The notes: generated by a model from the sequence alone, not told the origin. Positions 18,177 through 28,925 are shown, counted from the first letter of the stretch. The stretch: DNA of 47,562 bases from an uncultured Saprospiraceae bacterium (GCA_964396995.1 CAYNIG010000001.1:13632-61193), one strand, 5' to 3'. Made by a program: numbers and translations.

Positions 18177-18864
18177 ATGCCCGGGTTATTATCTTTATTT
18201 CGAATTGTTTTACTTGCCATTTCAATAGCTAATCTTTCGGCTTTTCTTTTAGCCAGCAAGCACCCAATATCCTTTTCATTTTAGTAGACGATATGCGCTT
18301 TGATGATTATCATCTTGGGGGGCATAATTTTGTCGAGACCCCCAATATAGACCGGCTCGCGAAAGAAGGTGCGCAATTCAGAAATATGTACTACACCCTT
18401 ATGCTCACCAAGCAGGGCGGCTTTTTTAACCGGGTAATATGCGCATCATAATGGAATCATAGATAATACCGCAAAAGATAAGCTCAATCATGAGTTTATG
18501 ACCTTTCCGCGAATCTTGAAAGAAAAAGCCGGGTATCAAACTGCTTTCATCGGCAAATGGCATATGGGTAATGACGATTCAAAACGACCGGGATTTGATT
18601 ACTGGATAGGTATGCCCGGTCAGGGCGAAGCCATTGATCCACTGTTAAATATAAATGGAATACGGCAGCGGGTAAAAGGATATGTAACGGATTTGTTTAC
18701 TGGTTACGCAATTGATTTCCTGGAAAAAAAAGCGGATAAATCCGTTGTTTTATACTTATCGCACAAAGCTTTACACCCCAATGTAATACAACGCGATGAC
18801 GGATCGTTAGTCAATATTGGTGAAGGGGAATTTATTGCAGCCGAAAGACATAAGTCAAAATATC
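18177..18864 (+). pseudogene. decayed 5' fragment of a sulfatase gene (paralogous copy of 26632..27325)
   Basis: Direct alignment to the intact gene. The same tatctttg box sits at the same spacing to the ATG. The signal-peptide region is unalignable and out of frame. There is a 5-nt deletion (atgtactacaccc vs atgttttgtaccacaccc) and a CAG->TAA nonsense change. The last ~360 nt have 3 mismatches. Homology stops abruptly after ...caaaatatc at 18864. Confidence 0.9.
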
Positions 18865-18880
18865 TCCAGTTTATCAATAT

Positions 18881-19408
18881 TTATTTACACTTCTTCTCTT
18901 TCGTCTTTTTCGTCTTATCCACTTTCCCATTCACCCCTGCCTGATCGGGATAATAACATCCCGGATTACTGATCAGTGCATCTGCCTCATCACTGCACTC
19001 GAGCCTGCAGGCGCGGCCATACAGCAGTTGTGTATCTCCTTTTTTATTTACGATTTTCATCATATACTTAAAAGCACCGATATACGGCTCTTTGTATCCA
19101 TCTCGCAGACCATTCCATCCATAGTTTTCCAGATTAGTATATACTATAGAGGGTCTATAAAATAGTACCGTATCACCTGTACCCGTAAAAATAGTAAAGT
19201 CTATCACCTCCACCACATTACCATTGAGATGAGGAAAAAACAGATCATTTATGCTGTCTTTATTGGGAGAGAATACATTGGGCACATAGATGCTCATATC
19301 GGCATAAGTATATTCTATCGGCTCGGCACCACAGCAGGCCTCATATTTTTTCTGAGCTATGATAAAACTATTGCTTATCATGATAGCTACTAATATTATG
19401 TATCTCAT
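18881..19408 (-). CDS. small secreted protein consisting mainly of a T9SS type-B (gliding-motility CHU_C-type) sorting domain
   Basis: Signal peptide MRYIILVAIMISNSFIIAQ. VPNVFSPNKDSINDLFFP ... WNGL ... GAFKYMMKI ... GRACRL matches the type-B CTD consensus (PNxFSPNGDGxND...WDG...G.Y.Y). An extra Cys/Lys-rich ~35-aa tail follows. Confidence 0.7.
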   Translation of the reverse strand: MRYIILVAIMISNSFIIAQKKYEACCGAEPIEYTYADMSIYVPNVFSPNKDSINDLFFPHLNGNVVEVIDFTIFTGTGDTVLFYRPSIVYTNLENYGWNGLRDGYKEPYIGAFKYMMKIVNKKGDTQLLYGRACRLECSDEADALISNPGCYYPDQAGVNGKVDKTKKTKEKKCK

Positions 19409-19979: not shown

Positions 19980-20264
19980 TTAAATAATCCTTGCATATGC
20001 ATCAGAATAGTACTCAACTTTTGAATCCGCTAATTCATTTTGAATCATTAATGCGATTTGTTGACCTTCAGAATCAAGAATGTCAATGATATCTCTATCT
20101 TCAAAACCAGAATAATGTTCTAATTCATATTTAATCAGCCAAATACATATTTTCTGAATCAATAAATCACTAATACCAAGTTGGTTTAGATCAATGAATT
20201 CACTTTCATACTTGGACCTCACCCCACTTCCACCAAGTTCAGCGTCTACAATTAAATATTTCAT
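19980..20264 (-). CDS. candidate cognate immunity protein for the RHS toxin tip (94 aa, cytoplasmic)
   Basis: It starts 11 nt after the RHS stop on the same strand. No signal peptide or TM. Acidic and small. It shares the AT-rich composition of the toxin tip. Confidence 0.55.
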   Translation of the reverse strand: MKYLIVDAELGGSGVRSKYESEFIDLNQLGISDLLIQKICIWLIKYELEHYSGFEDRDIIDILDSEGQQIALMIQNELADSKVEYYSDAYARII

Positions 20265-20275
20265 GTTTTTATTTA

Positions 20276-23200
20276 TTATTTAAAAATTCTAAATACTCTA
20301 TGGTCAATTATATTTTCTTTTGTAAGACCAATTTCAAAAAATCCAGGATTTCCGTTCATAGTTCCATTTAACCTAAATATTTGATAACCGTTTGGTTTAT
20401 TAATAGGATTAGATTTTAGTATTAAGTCATCAAAACTATATGGAAAATTATGGCCTCGTGGATCCGTTAATGCTCTTTCTCTGACTTTATTTGCATATTT
20501 AAAACCATGTGTGAACAAACTACTTGTTTTGCTAGAACTTGATTCAATTGAATGAACAATTAGATCGTTTTTTAACGTATAACCATTAACGTTATCACCA
20601 ATAGATTCAAGATAAGAATAACTATTAAAATCGTCTGCAATTTGACTTTCATTGGCACTAATGCCGGTAATTTTTCCAGGAGGATTTATTTCACCACTAT
20701 TAGGATTAACCCCGGATTTACTTTTACTTAACCATTTGGATATTTGGCCAGAAGCTGCTCCTATTGCTGCCCCAAATAAAACATCTCTTCCATAACTCTC
20801 CAATGAATAAGGATCACCAAATGCAATTTGATTTCCTATTCCCAAGATCGGTGATCCAAATGCAGATCCAACGCCTCCTACGACTGCACCCCCAAGAAAA
20901 CTAGAGCCTGCTGCACTTACTGCGCTGTAGCTAAAAGCGGTAGCCATGGTGCCTCCATTTGCTAATACGCCAGCTGCTCCTCCGGTAGCCGCTGTCACTG
21001 CACCGGCAACTGCACCGATTCCAAATGCCTTGAGTCCATCTCCTAAGTTGTTTATCTTACCTTGAAATCCTTTGATCAATAAATTAGCAGTACCTCCAAT
21101 AATTCCTCCTATAACTATATGCAACCATTCTCCATCAGGATCTGTATATTTTAGCGGATTATTTAGTGCATAACTATATCTATTATAATTTTGTGTAAGA
21201 TCAGGGGCCTGTATATTATTATCTACCGCCATCATCCTACCCACCACAGGATCGTAAAGACGGCCATTCATATTAATTATATTGAACAGCGGTAAGTGTT
21301 CGTGTCCGGTATATCCCCTCTGCATAAAAGTAATGGAGGATGTGCCTGTACTGCTATAATCCCAAGCACTTGGGTTACGATATCTACCCCAAACATCATA
21401 GTTTCTATTAAGTACTACAGATCCCCCGTTATTAGTGACTTTTACTATAGATCCTAAATGGTCTGTGTAGGCATATAAAAATCCATTGGTGCCGCTTGTA
21501 TTGGTTACGATCGATACCAGCCCATCACCTGCTGATATATAATGTATATGCCGGGTAATGCCTCCGCTGATGTCGATCTCATAGTCTCCAAAAAAATAAT
21601 GCGTATTGGTGGTACTACCGCTTTGTGTAGTGACGGTCTTTACTCGGTTTTCATCAGTACCATAGGTAAAGGTAAGGGTATTGGAGCCCTCTGATAAACT
21701 GGCTGGCTGTAAAAAAGAAGTGTAAGTGGGCAATGATTGAGATACGGTAGATATATTGCCTGCTGATGGATTGATCTGGGTCACCGCATTGATGCTGGCA
21801 CTACCATAGGTATAGGTACCAGCATCTGTCTTGCTAATTATATTACCATTTGCATTATAAGCTATATTTTGTGTAGTTAGGCCCGTTACGGTACTACTGG
21901 TAAGCCTATTGAGATTATCGTATACAAATGATTCTGTTTTAGTCACCAAATTATCTGTACGGCTGGTAAGGTTGCCTGTACTGTAATTCCATACCATGCT
22001 GAGATTTTGTAAGGTGCCCGCTGTATAATTGGTAGGTATGCCAAAGTGATATGTATTGGTACTTGTCACACCATTGCCCAGAGTATAGGTGAGATATTGA
22101 TTGTACCCATTCATGGTGCCCGTACTAAATATAGTGGTAGCTCCATTAGTGATGGTACTCAGATAGCCTTTGGTGTCATAATTATAGTTGAGTACAAACC
22201 CACTGGGGTAGGCTATAGAGCTTAGTAGATTGGAAGTAGTATATCCATAGGTTTTAATGTAATCAGTGGCATCCACCCTGTCTTTTTTGGTAGCTACCCT
22301 GCCATAGATATCATAAGTGTATTCCTCTATATGTCCTGAGTATGATGTGATTTTTTTGAGTTTTCCGGCTGAGCCCGTTCCTGTAGTATGGTATTCATAG
22401 CTCATAGTACCTTCGGGCATTACTTTGGTGAGCATACGACCTGCCAGATCGTAGGTCATAGTATGGGTCTGGCTTTTGGCATTTATCTGTGACACCAGCT
22501 CACCCAGTGCATTGTAATCATAGGTAGTGGTACCTGCATTGATATCTACGAGTGATGATTGCCTGGCATAGGCATCGTAATTATTGGTGACGAGAGTATT
22601 GGCTCCATTTACTACCGTTTTTAATCCGCCATGACTGTAATACGTATAGTTTAGAGTACCACCATAGTCAGTAGCTGATGTGGTTTTACCTGAGGCATCG
22701 GTCACTTTAGATGATACCTGGCTGGCAGGATTAGTCACTGTTACAGTAGTATTGCCGGAAGCGTATGCATAGCCATAGGTAGTAGTATAGTTGGTACCTC
22801 CTTTATTGTTTACAGTGCTGCTGATTCGATTGTATCCATCATAGTTTGTGGTGTTTATCTCGCCTGTTTCTCCAAGGCCTGATTTATAAGGCCCTGTTAC
22901 TGTAGTGAGATTACCCTTGGCATTGTATGATTTTAAAGTGGTGATCCAGTAATTTTGCCAGCCTTCTGTTTCTGATTTGATCTCCCTGTCTAATAAATCA
23001 TAATAAATTATTTCTTGAGGTTTACCGGTGGTGGTGACAGTAGTTTTAGTGATGGGCCCTCCGGTGGCATATCCATAGCCTGTGCTTATAGTTACTGAAG
23101 GTTGGATTGTCTGCGATGTTTGTCGACCAAAAGCATCATATGAAAAGGTGGTTACTACACCATCTATACCGGTCACTTGAGTAGGTTTTCCCCACAAAGG

Positions 23201-26200
23201 AGAATAAACTACCGATAAAGTTCCTTGCTGGGTCACCGTGGTGATAGGATACCTGCCTTTGGTGTCAAAAGTATGAGTAAAAGGAGTTCGGGTAGTAATA
23301 CCGGTAGCACTCACTGTAGCTGAGGTTTGATTTCCAAATGAATTATAAGCAAAGGTGGTAGTCTTTGCTTTGGGCAAACCAGAGAACTCTACAGAGCTGA
23401 TCATTTGACTCAAAGTGTTGTACCCATACGTATTGGTAAATGAATAAGCTGATTGACCGCTCCTGGTGATCGTGGTACTTACAGAGGTAGGCAATGATGG
23501 CACCGGTGTACCGTGCTGACCAAAGACAGTAGTAGTAGTGGTAGTTTCAAGGCCACTTTGTACATTTACTGTATTACTATTTATATTTCCATAGCTATCG
23601 TAGCCCAATGTAGTGACTGTACTTTGAGTGGTAAATGAATTATTTTCATTTATTCCATTAACCCTACTATAAAACTTGCCTGATCCTGTGGATACCCATT
23701 GATTGGTATTGGTGATTTGGCTGAGGAGTTGAAAGCTATTAGGCACATATTTTGTAGTAATTATTTTAGCAGCAGAGGTAAAGTAGGAAGTAGTTTCAAA
23801 TTCATTTTCATTAATTAACTGAATTCCGGTAGTCGTATTATGAGAGATATTTCTTAAAAATCCCATGAGCCCCCTGCCCTCTTTGTGTATTTTTAATTCT
23901 TCATAGGTATAGTTAGTAGTATTGGTAGTACCTATGCCATTATCTACTACTATGCTGGAAGCCAATGTGAATGGCAGCAATACATTGTTTACTTTCCCGG
24001 TTAATATTGCACCTCTGCCATAAAATGATCCCTGTTCGTTAAGTCTTTTATAAGCCCACTGTGTGGTGTGATTGTAGCCATTTTTTACTTTTTCCAGGTA
24101 AAGTTCTTTACCATCTTTCATAAAATAGATACCAAAAAATGGGGAGGTATTATTTACCCTTGTGAGCAATTCTGATTTTCCATCACCATTAATATCAAAT
24201 GGAGTAAATGGCATTGTATTAATGGCAAATGTTTGGACTTGAGATTGTACCTGAAAAGAGTTTCCTTTAGAAAAATAAGTCAAGGTGGTGGCAGGTGATG
24301 CGGAGGTAGCATGAAAAATATCTGTCTTTCCATCCCCATTGGCATCTAATAGTACAATCTTATCAGGGGCCCCTGTCTCGTTTATATTTGGTGTAACAGA
24401 AAAACCGAAAGCAGTACTGACAAAACCGGTACCTGTGGAGGCATAAATACTCCATGCAGATGCATTGTTATTTTTGTCTGCTCTACTGAGTATATCCATT
24501 TTGCGATCTCCATTAAAATCGCCAAAAAAGACTAAGTGAGTATTAGTAGGGTAAGCTGAATAATAAATGCTCCTTACTACATAATTATCAAAAGTAAATA
24601 CCTCTGTCCAGTTACCCGAAGTAATCATAAGATCAGATTTTCCATCGCCATTAAAATCTAAAACTTGAATTCTATTGGCAGTAGGCCAGGTAGATAGTTG
24701 AATATTCACGGTACCAGTAGATCCTACGGTTAAGAATCCAGAGGAAATACCTCCGTGATATAAATGTATACCAGCAGGCCCTCCGGTGGTCGTACTGAGC
24801 ATGGATACCAAATCGCCCATACCATCTCCATTAAAATCACCGGAAAATAAATAGTGCTGTGTGGTATTATTGATTTTACTGTAACCTGTATAAGGATTTA
24901 TAGTAATAGAGTCGTTAAAATTATTCAGGCCCTGAGATCCTTTATAAATTCGCACAAAATCCAGTGTGAGATTATTTGCTGTAACCGAACCACTGGTTTT
25001 TGCAGCAACCAAATCATCTATTCCGTCACCGGTATAATCATTGGTGTAAAATGTATAAACATCGGGGATAGATTTCTTTTTTAATGAAGAAAAATTTCCA
25101 GGTAGATTTTTGGTATAAGATCCTGTAAACCCTGTAGTGCCATTGGATTTATATAGATTAAATTTGGAAGTGTATTCTACGCCATTGGATACGTTTGTCA
25201 CAGCCTCCACTAAGTCAGAGAAGCCATCCGTATTAAAATCACCTGAAAAATAATTTGCAGTCTGCACTCCCGTGGTCCCTGTGGTAAGTGAAGTGTAAAT
25301 AGCTGGCTGATCTCCATATTTAAAAATAGTACTATTTAGTAATGTATTATCAGACCCCATCTCGACCACTTCTGTTAAATAGCTGTTGACCAGGTCCCAC
25401 CCATAATAAAATCTATACGATTTGAACCCAGCCAGTCCTTCAGCAGTAATAGTAATTTTATCAAGAAAATAATTATTGGTAATACCAATGGTACCAATGT
25501 AAACGGTATTTACATCTGATCGGGATACATAAGTAAAACTTATCTTACTATAAGGAGCCAGACCTGCTGATGTATTTCCTGTATAGTTTATTTCTGATAT
25601 TCTGGGATTATTATTATCCGTAGCATATACATATTCAATATAGTTACCATCCTGATATCGGATTTTGTTTAATCGCCATATGTGGGGTACAACGCCATTA
25701 TCGGAAGTAATACTATTTCCTGTATTACCATATTCATATACTACGCCATTTTTTTGTGTTACGTTAAATGCAATTTGATTGGTAACAGCAGATGTATAGC
25801 AGGAAATGCTCGCAAAAGATTCTATCTCTGTACCATATACAGACCCACTAAGGCCATAAGAGCCCGTAACGAGGTTTAATCTCACACCATCCAAAGCAAA
25901 ACGATCGTTTGCATTTGCTTCGATAGGGTTCACTAAATTGTCGTGTATAAGATCTCTGTTTACTCTGGTGATAGAAGATAGACCCGCCAATGACCAGCCC
26001 TGTCCGAGAGCACCATTGCCCCCCAAAGAATTATAAACCACACTCAAAGATGGTTGTACGCCATTAGTTCCGGGTGGAACTATTATCGGAATACTATAAG
26101 TGGCTGCCCCTGACAAATCTACATCTGCAGCCGCAGGTATGGTACCTACAGGCAAAGTAGTATTAATAGTCTTAGTAAAGTTAGCATTGGTGTATAAAGC

Positions 26201-26272
26201 ACCTTGACTTAAAATTCCATTTACTATGGCAACTATAAAATAAAGAATAAAGAATGACCTGTAAATTCTCAT
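20276..26272 (-). CDS. RHS/YD-repeat polymorphic toxin with SpvB-like N-domain and 7-bladed FG-GAP propeller (fused TcB-TcC-like cocoon) and a variable C-terminal toxin
   Basis: Signal peptide MRIYRSFFILYFIVAIVNGILSQG. SpvB/TcdB N-terminal motif (GAATYSIPIIVPPGTNGVQPSLSVVYNS...GQGWSL). Seven GDFNGDGxxDL-type FG-GAP repeats. Dozens of YD repeats (YDAFGRQT, YDLAGRM, YDIYGRV...). RHS core end YTGHEH...GRLYDPVVGRMMAVD...NPLKYTDPDGEW. A 283-aa tail follows. Confidence 0.95.
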   Translation of the reverse strand: MRIYRSFFILYFIVAIVNGILSQGALYTNANFTKTINTTLPVGTIPAAADVDLSGAATYSIPIIVPPGTNGVQPSLSVVYNSLGGNGALGQGWSLAGLSSITRVNRDLIHDNLVNPIEANANDRFALDGVRLNLVTGSYGLSGSVYGTEIESFASISCYTSAVTNQIAFNVTQKNGVVYEYGNTGNSITSDNGVVPHIWRLNKIRYQDGNYIEYVYATDNNNPRISEINYTGNTSAGLAPYSKISFTYVSRSDVNTVYIGTIGITNNYFLDKITITAEGLAGFKSYRFYYGWDLVNSYLTEVVEMGSDNTLLNSTIFKYGDQPAIYTSLTTGTTGVQTANYFSGDFNTDGFSDLVEAVTNVSNGVEYTSKFNLYKSNGTTGFTGSYTKNLPGNFSSLKKKSIPDVYTFYTNDYTGDGIDDLVAAKTSGSVTANNLTLDFVRIYKGSQGLNNFNDSITINPYTGYSKINNTTQHYLFSGDFNGDGMGDLVSMLSTTTGGPAGIHLYHGGISSGFLTVGSTGTVNIQLSTWPTANRIQVLDFNGDGKSDLMITSGNWTEVFTFDNYVVRSIYYSAYPTNTHLVFFGDFNGDRKMDILSRADKNNNASAWSIYASTGTGFVSTAFGFSVTPNINETGAPDKIVLLDANGDGKTDIFHATSASPATTLTYFSKGNSFQVQSQVQTFAINTMPFTPFDINGDGKSELLTRVNNTSPFFGIYFMKDGKELYLEKVKNGYNHTTQWAYKRLNEQGSFYGRGAILTGKVNNVLLPFTLASSIVVDNGIGTTNTTNYTYEELKIHKEGRGLMGFLRNISHNTTTGIQLINENEFETTSYFTSAAKIITTKYVPNSFQLLSQITNTNQWVSTGSGKFYSRVNGINENNSFTTQSTVTTLGYDSYGNINSNTVNVQSGLETTTTTTVFGQHGTPVPSLPTSVSTTITRSGQSAYSFTNTYGYNTLSQMISSVEFSGLPKAKTTTFAYNSFGNQTSATVSATGITTRTPFTHTFDTKGRYPITTVTQQGTLSVVYSPLWGKPTQVTGIDGVVTTFSYDAFGRQTSQTIQPSVTISTGYGYATGGPITKTTVTTTGKPQEIIYYDLLDREIKSETEGWQNYWITTLKSYNAKGNLTTVTGPYKSGLGETGEINTTNYDGYNRISSTVNNKGGTNYTTTYGYAYASGNTTVTVTNPASQVSSKVTDASGKTTSATDYGGTLNYTYYSHGGLKTVVNGANTLVTNNYDAYARQSSLVDINAGTTTYDYNALGELVSQINAKSQTHTMTYDLAGRMLTKVMPEGTMSYEYHTTGTGSAGKLKKITSYSGHIEEYTYDIYGRVATKKDRVDATDYIKTYGYTTSNLLSSIAYPSGFVLNYNYDTKGYLSTITNGATTIFSTGTMNGYNQYLTYTLGNGVTSTNTYHFGIPTNYTAGTLQNLSMVWNYSTGNLTSRTDNLVTKTESFVYDNLNRLTSSTVTGLTTQNIAYNANGNIISKTDAGTYTYGSASINAVTQINPSAGNISTVSQSLPTYTSFLQPASLSEGSNTLTFTYGTDENRVKTVTTQSGSTTNTHYFFGDYEIDISGGITRHIHYISAGDGLVSIVTNTSGTNGFLYAYTDHLGSIVKVTNNGGSVVLNRNYDVWGRYRNPSAWDYSSTGTSSITFMQRGYTGHEHLPLFNIINMNGRLYDPVVGRMMAVDNNIQAPDLTQNYNRYSYALNNPLKYTDPDGEWLHIVIGGIIGGTANLLIKGFQGKINNLGDGLKAFGIGAVAGAVTAATGGAAGVLANGGTMATAFSYSAVSAAGSSFLGGAVVGGVGSAFGSPILGIGNQIAFGDPYSLESYGRDVLFGAAIGAASGQISKWLSKSKSGVNPNSGEINPPGKITGISANESQIADDFNSYSYLESIGDNVNGYTLKNDLIVHSIESSSSKTSSLFTHGFKYANKVRERALTDPRGHNFPYSFDDLILKSNPINKPNGYQIFRLNGTMNGNPGFFEIGLTKENIIDHRVFRIFK

Positions 26273-28857: not shown

Positions 28858-28925
28858 AACCTCTTTCTTTCCCTGCCCCAAATTGGCCAATACCATTCTA
28901 TATTAATCCATTTACACGGCAAATC
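28858..28925. repeat. diverged copy of the AlkB 3'-end/downstream segment
   Basis: ccccaaattggccaataccattctatattaatccatttacacggcaaatc aligns with acccaaatttgccaataccattctacattatattaatcaatttgcaccgaaattc at 29127-29181. Confidence 0.6.

Follow-up and report, generated by a model that had tools for sequence, protein, structure and literature searches.

Introduction

RHS proteins that carry a polymorphic toxin at the C-terminus, with an immunity gene alongside, are a textbook kind of system. In the solved Rhs effectors V. parahaemolyticus RhsP (PDB 8H8A), Photorhabdus Tre23 (7PQ5) and P. protegens RhsA (7Q97), an RHS/YD shell with a DPxG-ended core encapsulates a C-terminal toxin. Here, we analyse an RHS polymorphic-toxin gene and the small gene that follows it in a stretch of 47 562 nucleotides (nt) from an uncultured Saprospiraceae bacterium (GCA_964396995.1, CAYNIG010000001.1:13632-61193); the whole stretch is referred to as the window, with positions counted from its first letter. 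The RHS gene lies on the minus strand at 20276..26272 as an open reading frame (ORF) of 1998 amino acids (aa). Its product likewise has the RHS/YD shell, the DPxG-ended core and a C-terminal toxin. However, the solved effectors are type VI secretion system (T6SS) cargo with PAAR- or VgrG-binding N-termini, whereas the window protein has a signal peptide-like leader and a TcB-like N-terminal half, and sequence searches found their tips to be unrelated to its own.

Several other described systems are relevant to the tip of this protein. In Serratia marcescens BWH57, the complex of CdiA-CT with CdiI (PDB 7M5F; CASP14 target H1065) contains a toxin that its depositors describe as BECR-fold and RNase-like, with an acidic CdiI patch lying over its electropositive face (PMC8616854). 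The B. subtilis tRNase WapA has WapI as its immunity protein (PMC5566331; PMC9990079), a pair that combines an RHS-type wall-associated carrier with a tRNase at the C-terminus and a small immunity protein in the cytosol. The BECR core has been defined as a helical N-terminal segment followed by a meander (Zhang et al. 2012, PMC3482391); in the Ntox19 and Ntox50 clades, one His is N-terminal and a second lies in the last core strand. Ntox19 is a predicted BECR-fold RNase toxin domain with the signature D, H, DxxxR, E, HxxF (PMC3482391). Agrobacterium Tde1 has a glycine-zipper region that is required for entry into the target cell, whereas DNase activity does not depend on it (PMC10240207); the segment does not kill on its own, and its proposed role is to make the inner membrane of the target permeable.

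The window locus shares features with each of these systems. Taken as a whole, we think it rather probable that it encodes an RHS polymorphic-toxin tip and its immunity gene, in which a translocating Gly/Ala-rich segment precedes an RNase-like toxin that acts in the cytoplasm.

The terminal domain and its family

The terminal toxin domain comprises residues 1918−1998 (81 aa; 20279..20521, minus strand). A four-sequence profile searched against 1.84 billion representatives of clusters at 50% identity recovered 564 proteins at a threshold of E ≤ 1e-3, of which 84 reach E ≤ 1e-30; in all of them, the match falls at the very C-terminal end. The domain is carried by RHS, PT-HINT, PT-TG and PT-VENN/DUF637 (CdiA-type) proteins and by proteins with the extracellular contractile injection system (eCIS) core domain. 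When one genome of each species was scanned, 60 loci were recovered, from Bacteroidota, Alpha- and Gammaproteobacteria (Pseudomonadota), Actinomycetota, Acidobacteriota, Verrucomicrobiota and Myxococcota. With locus L001 added, 61 were examined, of which 17 hold short orphan cassettes. One homologue (L065) belongs to the amoeba endosymbiont Candidatus Paracaedibacter. Viral contigs held no close relatives and plasmids a single one, in Leptospira noguchii. A word-indexed homologue search returned only three relatives of the toxin and none of the immunity protein, which reflects the sensitivity limit of that search and not rarity.

In an alignment of 36 family members, residues Y9, D20, H24, F26, P27, Y28, D31, G53, G60, I72, H74 and R75 (domain numbering) are invariant, while R16, N25 and E63 are nearly so. 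The window toxin keeps every invariant residue and is basic (charge +5, pI 9.89; family mean charge +3.5). We refer to the family by its motif HNFPYSFD; the slightly longer string HNFPYSFDD had no match in a literature search. Members of the domain matched nothing in Pfam or NCBIfam even at E ≤ 10, scans of the window tip against the same libraries gave nothing meaningful, and comparison with PDB sequences, using phmmer for the tip and hmmsearch for the toxin profile, yielded noise only. We conclude that HNFPYSFD is a widespread, uncharacterised toxin family, unnamed in the libraries searched, although it may be equivalent to Ntox19.

The family numbers at least 564 clusters at 50% identity in several phyla and is without a Pfam or NCBIfam model or a solved structure. 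Defining it would allow the annotation of hundreds of ‘hypothetical’ RHS, CdiA and HINT tips and orphan cassettes, using as markers the invariant Y, D, H, N-F-P-Y, D ... H-R together with three alternative immunity families. Some members (P0096, P0126, P0131, P0143, L055 and L059) have an insertion of approximately 14 residues (GKVVTDPxTGxRTQxYKDG) in the hairpin that leads into the FEIG strand, so this hairpin loop tolerates insertions.

The downstream gene and its linkage to the toxin

A double TAA ends the toxin gene and is followed, after 11 nt, by the ATG of a 94-aa ORF (19980..20264, minus strand). In 48 of the 61 loci, the ORF that comes straight after the toxin domain encodes a homologue of this small protein (phmmer E-values from 1.6e-31 to 2.7e-4); typically, it overlaps the toxin stop codon by 4 nt or sits within approximately 10 nt of it. 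Toxins and partners each divide into two subclasses. Toxin subclass A (...I[DN]HR...) is found with immunity subclass 1 (DAxLxGTG-type) in 27 of 27 loci, and toxin subclass B (...IFHR...) with immunity subclass 2 (ADY...IIP-type) in 18 of 18; there are zero cross pairs. This co-segregation identifies a true toxin−immunity pair, and on the strength of the conserved linkage we assign the 94-aa protein as the cognate immunity protein, co-evolving with the terminal domain. An earlier reading made from the DNA alone (the sequence-only reading) had put this ORF forward as an immunity candidate without a signal peptide or transmembrane (TM) segment, and both points are borne out: no signal peptide is present, and the highest Kyte−Doolittle mean over 19 aa is 1.26, below TM grade. 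The window protein is strongly acidic (net charge −10, pI 4.26; family mean −6.1). A cytoplasmic target for the toxin would be a sensible expectation.

For 32 of the partners (the window protein and 31 relatives), Pfam gave no match of any kind at E ≤ 10, and NCBIfam nothing meaningful either. BLASTP of the window protein against the partner at P0002 returned nothing, while global alignment (z = 11.8) and phmmer show the two to be homologous. An identical immunity gene was seen on two short Logan contigs only. At residues 17 and 21, the window immunity protein carries Ser in place of the Asp17 and Gly21 found in 90% or more of its relatives (GVRSKYES versus GIRDxxxGG), and the window toxin reads N-K where most have D-R (ANKVRER versus ADRVRxR). 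These changes could be compensatory or plain drift.

Not all HNFPYSFD toxins are paired with this family. At four loci (L029, L030, L055 and L059; for example L029:4236-4742), the toxins are typical of HNFPYSFD, but the place of the immunity protein of approximately 97 aa is taken by a conserved, unrelated protein of 167−169 aa, which has no Pfam or NCBIfam match and is probably an alternative immunity family. The three most divergent toxins, those of L062−L064 (for example L063:4194-4610), are instead followed by WapI-like proteins (PF24716; E-values 9e-5, 2e-6 and 7e-8). Three unrelated immunity families, one CdiI-BWH57-like, one WapI-like and one of approximately 168 aa, thus serve a single toxin family, so that immunity homology is a weak guide to toxin chemistry.

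Homology of the immunity protein to CdiI-BWH57

When the profile of the 32 partners was searched against the PDB with hmmsearch, it matched 7M5F_A, the CdiI chain of the BWH57 complex (E = 3e-5; profile positions 2−87 against chain positions 2−96). An alignment of eight BWH57-type CdiI sequences (the 7M5F sequence and seven from plasmid records) gave a strong hhalign match to the window's immunity family (98.6%, E = 5e-16 over 87 columns). On these profile matches, we place the window immunity protein in the CdiI-BWH57 superfamily, with a shared fold family. The sequence-only reading had called the toxin tip unassigned and had named no relative for the immunity candidate. The terminal domain indeed matched no Pfam, NCBIfam or PDB sequence, but the immunity protein is a confident CdiI-BWH57 homologue, so that the pair is not wholly unassigned.

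The two systems are alike in several respects. In both, the immunity protein is acidic, cytosolic and approximately 95−100 aa in length, with its gene coming straight after that of the toxin. The toxin of either system is a small, basic α+β domain with N-terminal helices ahead of a β-meander, and each lies behind a separate entry or pre-toxin region. The differences concern the carrier, which is CdiA of the type V secretion system (T5SS) for BWH57 and RHS for the window, and the toxin itself: BWH57-type toxins are longer (approx. 110−127 aa), with motifs of their own (GLxHIxxxHGxEF ... GFIVGANxR) and a weak PBECR1 signal. Furthermore, residues by which CdiI-BWH57 contacts its toxin, W16 and the C-terminal Tyr among them, are not kept in the window's immunity family. 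The link to 7M5F nevertheless provides a structural template for the antidote, and it poses the question of whether the two toxins are BECR relatives separated by extreme divergence or whether one immunity fold serves unrelated toxins.

BWH57-type toxins were also observed at L068−L071, on a plasmid CdiA, an ALF-repeat protein and other large tips, with sub-threshold matches to PBECR1 (PF18809; E-values 0.003−0.006). Neither this toxin family nor its CdiI family has a Pfam match at threshold, although the complex has been solved.

Predicted fold and candidate chemistry of the toxin domain

An AlphaFold2 (AF2) model of the toxin domain, based on the 36-sequence alignment, was predicted with high confidence (pLDDT 94.2, pTM 0.82). 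It has helices at residues 11−19, 21−24 and 28−35 followed by strands at 39−40, 47−55, 58−66 and 71−79. This order agrees with the published definition of the BECR core, although Foldseek returns no BECR structure. Judged from the alignment and the model together, invariant H24 lies in the helical part and invariant H74/R75 in the last strand, a placement that corresponds with the two His of the Ntox19 and Ntox50 clades. Foldseek matches close to significance came from BFVD alone, where full-length hits to giant-virus ankyrin-repeat proteins were found (E-values from 1.9e-3 to 7e-2, TMq 0.59−0.67, 15−26% identity). The best of these is a Bodo saltans virus protein (A0A2H4UWK3; E = 1.9e-3, TMq 0.66, 25% identity), and others are from Megavirus, Hyperionvirus and Edafosvirus.

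The resemblance to Ntox19, judged by its published description, extends beyond the predicted fold; Pfam scans of the toxin family gave no Ntox19 match. Most of the signature recurs in the same order in the window family, as D20, H24, D31, E63 and H74xxF77; the exception is DxxxR, which is replaced by DDxIL, with no R at +4 from D31. The reported contexts of Ntox19, namely RHS and TcdB/TcaC-type carriers, Bacteroidetes, amoeba endosymbionts and a mimivirus ankyrin fusion (PMC3482391), parallel the BFVD matches and the endosymbiont homologue at L065.

A second line of comparison leads to WapA. The WapI-like partners of the divergent branch (L062−L064) point to an RNase, because WapA is a tRNase, and they hint that B. 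subtilis WapA-CT may be related to the HNFPYSFD domain; the window's own immunity protein is not WapI-like. We would put at about even the chance that the domain works in the cytoplasm as an RNase of a BECR-like, metal-independent type.

The Gly/Ala-rich pre-toxin module

Between the core and the toxin lie a Gly/Ala-rich hydrophobic module (residues 1716−1850; 20723..21127, minus strand) and a Ser/Asn-rich variable linker (residues 1851−1917; 20522..20722, minus strand). Gly makes up 22% and Ala 16% of the first 135 or so residues of the tip, positions 34 to 104 are without any charged residue, and 3−4 stretches are moderately hydrophobic (Kyte−Doolittle 19-aa means of 1.2−1.6). The sequence-only reading had described the first 130 or so residues in much these terms, and composition and hydropathy agree with it; its further claim of a GxxxG zipper does not survive comparison with composition-preserving shuffles (8 GxxxG pairs observed, 6.3 ± 2.0 expected, p = 0.28). 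We therefore reject a periodic glycine zipper in this stretch and regard the appearance of one as a matter of composition. Pairs of small residues at the same spacing (small-xxx-small) number 35, against 29.1 ± 2.9 expected from shuffles (p = 0.03). In Pfam, Gly-zipper_OmpA was matched at E = 0.51 only.

Homologues of the segment were found by phmmer right after the core of other RHS proteins, in Dyadobacter (L017, 1.4e-32; L015, 1.3e-29), in a Salinivirgaceae metagenome-assembled genome (MAG; L063, 1e-20) and in a Bacteroidota MAG (L014, 4e-15). It also occurs in fragments annotated as RHS core proteins (P0158−P0163). The word-indexed search with the segment produced six short fragments and nothing more. 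At L063, it precedes a divergent toxin and a different immunity protein. Its distribution among these loci identifies the segment as a conserved pre-toxin module, reused and shuffled independently of the toxin. It is thus part of the tip, as first described, but is not specific to this toxin.

By analogy with described entry segments, the module most likely inserts in the cytoplasmic membrane of the target and aids the crossing of its cargo. In Tde1, as in CdiA-CT entry domains and the TM domains of Tse6, a hydrophobic segment stands N-terminal to a toxin that acts in the cytoplasm, the same arrangement as in the window tip, and that of Tde1 is likewise Gly-rich. The window segment has no sequence relationship with these; it occupies approximately 135 aa between the RHS core and the toxin, where the shell, and not a chaperone, presumably shields it. 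The module of Bacteroidota RHS proteins is in this respect a candidate self-contained device for inner-membrane entry.

Base composition and exchange of the cassette

The distal part of the tip and the immunity gene differ from the rest of the RHS gene in base composition. In the core, sampled in 243-nt windows, the G+C fraction is 0.394 ± 0.036 (minimum 0.313) and that at third codon positions (GC3) 0.332 ± 0.059 (minimum 0.185). The corresponding G+C and GC3 values are 0.449 and 0.259 for the Gly-rich segment, 0.318 and 0.149 for the linker, 0.28 and 0.136 for the toxin domain, and 0.309 and 0.221 for the immunity ORF. The AT-richness of the tip end and the immunity ORF exceeds what amino-acid composition explains. 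A single change-point fit places the drop in GC3 at about codon 1690 (window position approx. 21205), close to the end of the core.

The modules also have separate histories, and RHS proteins that are otherwise alike carry unrelated tips. Relative to the window, L063 is 40% identical in the core and 47% in the Gly segment but only 25% in the toxin, and its immunity protein differs; L006 and L014 show the reverse, with toxins at 62−64% identity on cores at only 24−26%. The linker is just 16−28% identical to that of loci with the same flanking modules. From the GC3 break and this shuffling of modules among loci, we deduce that the tip and immunity cassette was acquired via recombination at the core/tip junction. 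The sequence-only reading had likewise proposed a swapped, AT-rich toxin/immunity cassette on an RHS tip. The break next to the core end and the AT-rich toxin, linker and immunity ORF (G+C 0.28−0.318) accord with that proposal, while its figure of some 42% G+C for the core was too high (approx. 39%).

Layout of the RHS protein and proposed mechanism

From its N-terminus, the RHS protein consists of a signal peptide-like leader, SpvB, an FG-GAP propeller, TcdB_toxin_midN, RHS/YD repeats, the core and the 283-aa tip. Pfam places SpvB at residues 54−222, FG-GAP at 535−595 and TcdB_toxin_midN at 690−831. The repeats are recognised in four stretches by PF05593 (E = 2.6e-20) and, in NCBIfam, by TIGR01643 (E = 1.8e-19) and YD_repeat_2x. 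The closest solved shells in the PDB are the Rhs proteins 8H8A, 8QJA, 7PQ5 and 7Q97. By its domain matches, the protein resembles a TcB−TcC fusion, with a TcB-like SpvB/FG-GAP/TcdB_midN half joined to a TcC-like RHS shell.

The RHS-associated core domain (residues 1625−1714; 21131..21400, minus strand) was identified by TIGR03696, Rhs_assc_core (E = 3.6e-11; 43.4 bits against a cut-off of 32.5). This core would be the plug and autoprotease region that closes the shell. It ends in ...NPLKYTDPDGE, and the motif DPDGE|W (residues 1711−1716; 21125..21142, minus strand) is the putative release point of the tip. Related Bacteroidota RHS proteins also have a DPxG[x]|W/F-hydrophobic junction. Together with the published biology of Rhs and TcC proteins, the motif suggests autoproteolytic release at DPDGE|W. 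The sequence-only reading had the ORFs, their coordinates, the end of the core, the W1716 codon at 21125−21127 and the 283-aa tip beyond it all correct.

A mechanism can be proposed on this basis. The RHS protein would be exported by its Sec leader, with the 283-aa tip enclosed by the shell and cut free inside it at DPDGE|W; the shell would keep the Gly/Ala-rich segment off the membranes of the producer. After delivery, this segment would insert in the inner membrane of the target cell and help the toxin domain across. In the cytoplasm, the domain would act as an endoribonuclease via His24 and His74/Arg75, with Glu63, Asp20/31 and Tyr9/28 as possible helper residues in the proposed chemistry. 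In the producer, the acidic 94-aa protein would bind the toxin in the cytosol and block it.

Weighing the alternatives

The RNase reading has to be set against a rival in which the terminal domain is a cytoplasmic toxin of another kind, such as a DNase, an enzyme that modifies NAD(P) or nucleotides, or a stoichiometric inhibitor, with a fold of its own. A number of observations weigh against an RNase and on the side of this rival. Foldseek searches of 350 542 PDB chains with models of pLDDT 88.8 and 94.2 gave no significant fold match (best E 0.2, TMq 0.44), and no BECR member, 7M5F included, was among the top 50. Nor did hhalign of the toxin profile give a significant result with single sequences of RelE, YoeB, barnase, RNase Sa, RNase T1, HigB or MqsR, which is a weak test; the best was RNase Sa, at 18% over a 24-column FPYS stretch with ‘FPYS.D’ in common. 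There is similarly no link between the toxin family and BWH57-type toxins (hhalign 0.4%, hmmsearch --max empty). Related immunity proteins beside seemingly unrelated toxins may reflect a promiscuous immunity fold, which weakens the step from 7M5F to the toxin, and the recruitment of three immunity families has the same effect. The reported partners of Ntox19, Imm38 (DUF2247) and Imm40, differ from all three. The divergent toxins of L062−L064 keep HNFPYSFD and HR but are without Glu63, and the residues that are invariant (Y, D, H, N, Y, D, H, R) do not single out RNA cleavage. On the other hand, most folds that use a nucleotide cofactor need more than 81 aa, the pairing of a basic toxin and an acidic immunity protein is what nucleases usually show, topology and the two His agree with the published BECR and Ntox19/Ntox50 descriptions, and both named immunity relatives, CdiI-BWH57 and WapI, belong to RNase-type toxins. 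On balance, we regard a non-RNase toxin as somewhat unlikely. The guess of a small BECR-type RNase made in the sequence-only reading gains indirect backing from topology, the two-His layout and immunity homology, and none from Foldseek or profile comparisons, which produced no BECR protein. A more radical version is unlikely: that HNFPYSFD is a toxin fold in its own right, shared with giant-virus ankyrin proteins and with a new target or chemistry, against which the CdiI-BWH57 scaffold was recruited independently of its use against an unrelated toxin, and for which one toxin family recruited three unrelated immunity folds. If true, this would amount to two-way partner switching between toxins and immunity proteins.

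Entry and delivery are also open to other readings. The proposed role of the Gly-rich segment in translocation relies on analogy with Tde1 and CdiA-CT entry domains, its GxxxG content is no higher than chance, and the window has neither T6SS nor TcA delivery genes near the RHS gene; all three points count against the favoured mechanism. The segment could itself be the main toxin, forming pores or depolarising membranes in the manner of Tse5-CT, TelE/EsxX, the ionophores of contact-dependent inhibition (CDI) or CdzC/D, with the terminal domain as a second warhead or accessory. Its richness in Gly and Ala and its uncharged hydrophobic stretches would suit such a role, and glycine-zipper toxins are described that kill by membrane damage, some of them on polymorphic-toxin carriers (PMC12744356, PMC11630599, PMC5380434). 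The pattern of immunity argues otherwise. The 11-nt gap contains no ORF, and 19400−21200 holds no candidate TM ORF of at least 30 aa. The sole conserved partner is cytosolic and acidic and co-evolves with the terminal domain rather than with the Gly segment, whose reuse with different toxin/immunity pairs fits a delivery module. No solved protein matches the tip in sequence, not even the tip of another Rhs toxin, and the GxxxG count equals the expectation from composition. A membrane toxin seems distinctly improbable. The SpvB, FG-GAP and TcdB_toxin_midN domains at the N-terminus raise the further idea of a Tc-like (TcB−TcC fusion) toxin directed at eukaryotic cells, with the 94-aa ORF unrelated to self-protection; giant viruses of protists have proteins structurally related to the toxin domain, which could be cited for it, as could the homologue in an amoeba endosymbiont. 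We consider this highly improbable, given a co-evolving downstream partner in 48 of 61 loci from six phyla, the frequency of orphan toxin/immunity cassettes, the presence of the domain on CdiA-type (VENN, DUF637) and HINT carriers and a window without a TcA gene; moreover, immunity genes are a hallmark of interbacterial toxins (PMC3482391).

Genomic surroundings of the RHS block

The neighbours of the RHS gene are housekeeping genes and a PorZ homologue. Downstream of the immunity gene, at a distance of 30 nt, is a 136-aa ORF (19539−19949, minus strand), whose product combines a signal peptide and a stretch resembling a YD repeat (TYDAAGDRTAR) with a C-terminal sorting domain of the type IX secretion system (T9SS; PF18962, E = 2.4e-9). 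Two Logan contigs show the same gene order. For a further ORF, at 18881−19408, a CHU_C T9SS domain was matched weakly.

Across the RHS block from the sulfatase gene, 18148−18864 is a degraded direct copy (approx. 720 nt, 93% identical) of 26603−27325, the 5′ end of that gene (26623−28056), with several indels and a frameshift at 18386/7. The two sulfatase copies bracket approximately 7.7 kb that hold the two ORFs with T9SS C-terminal domains, the immunity gene and the RHS gene. This arrangement suggests that the RHS island arrived or was rearranged through recombination at the sulfatase gene. Further along, between a 253-aa ORF and a fatty-acid desaturase gene, a 43-nt direct repeat is present at 28863−28905 and 29114−29156, with copies that are 88% identical and 251 nt apart.

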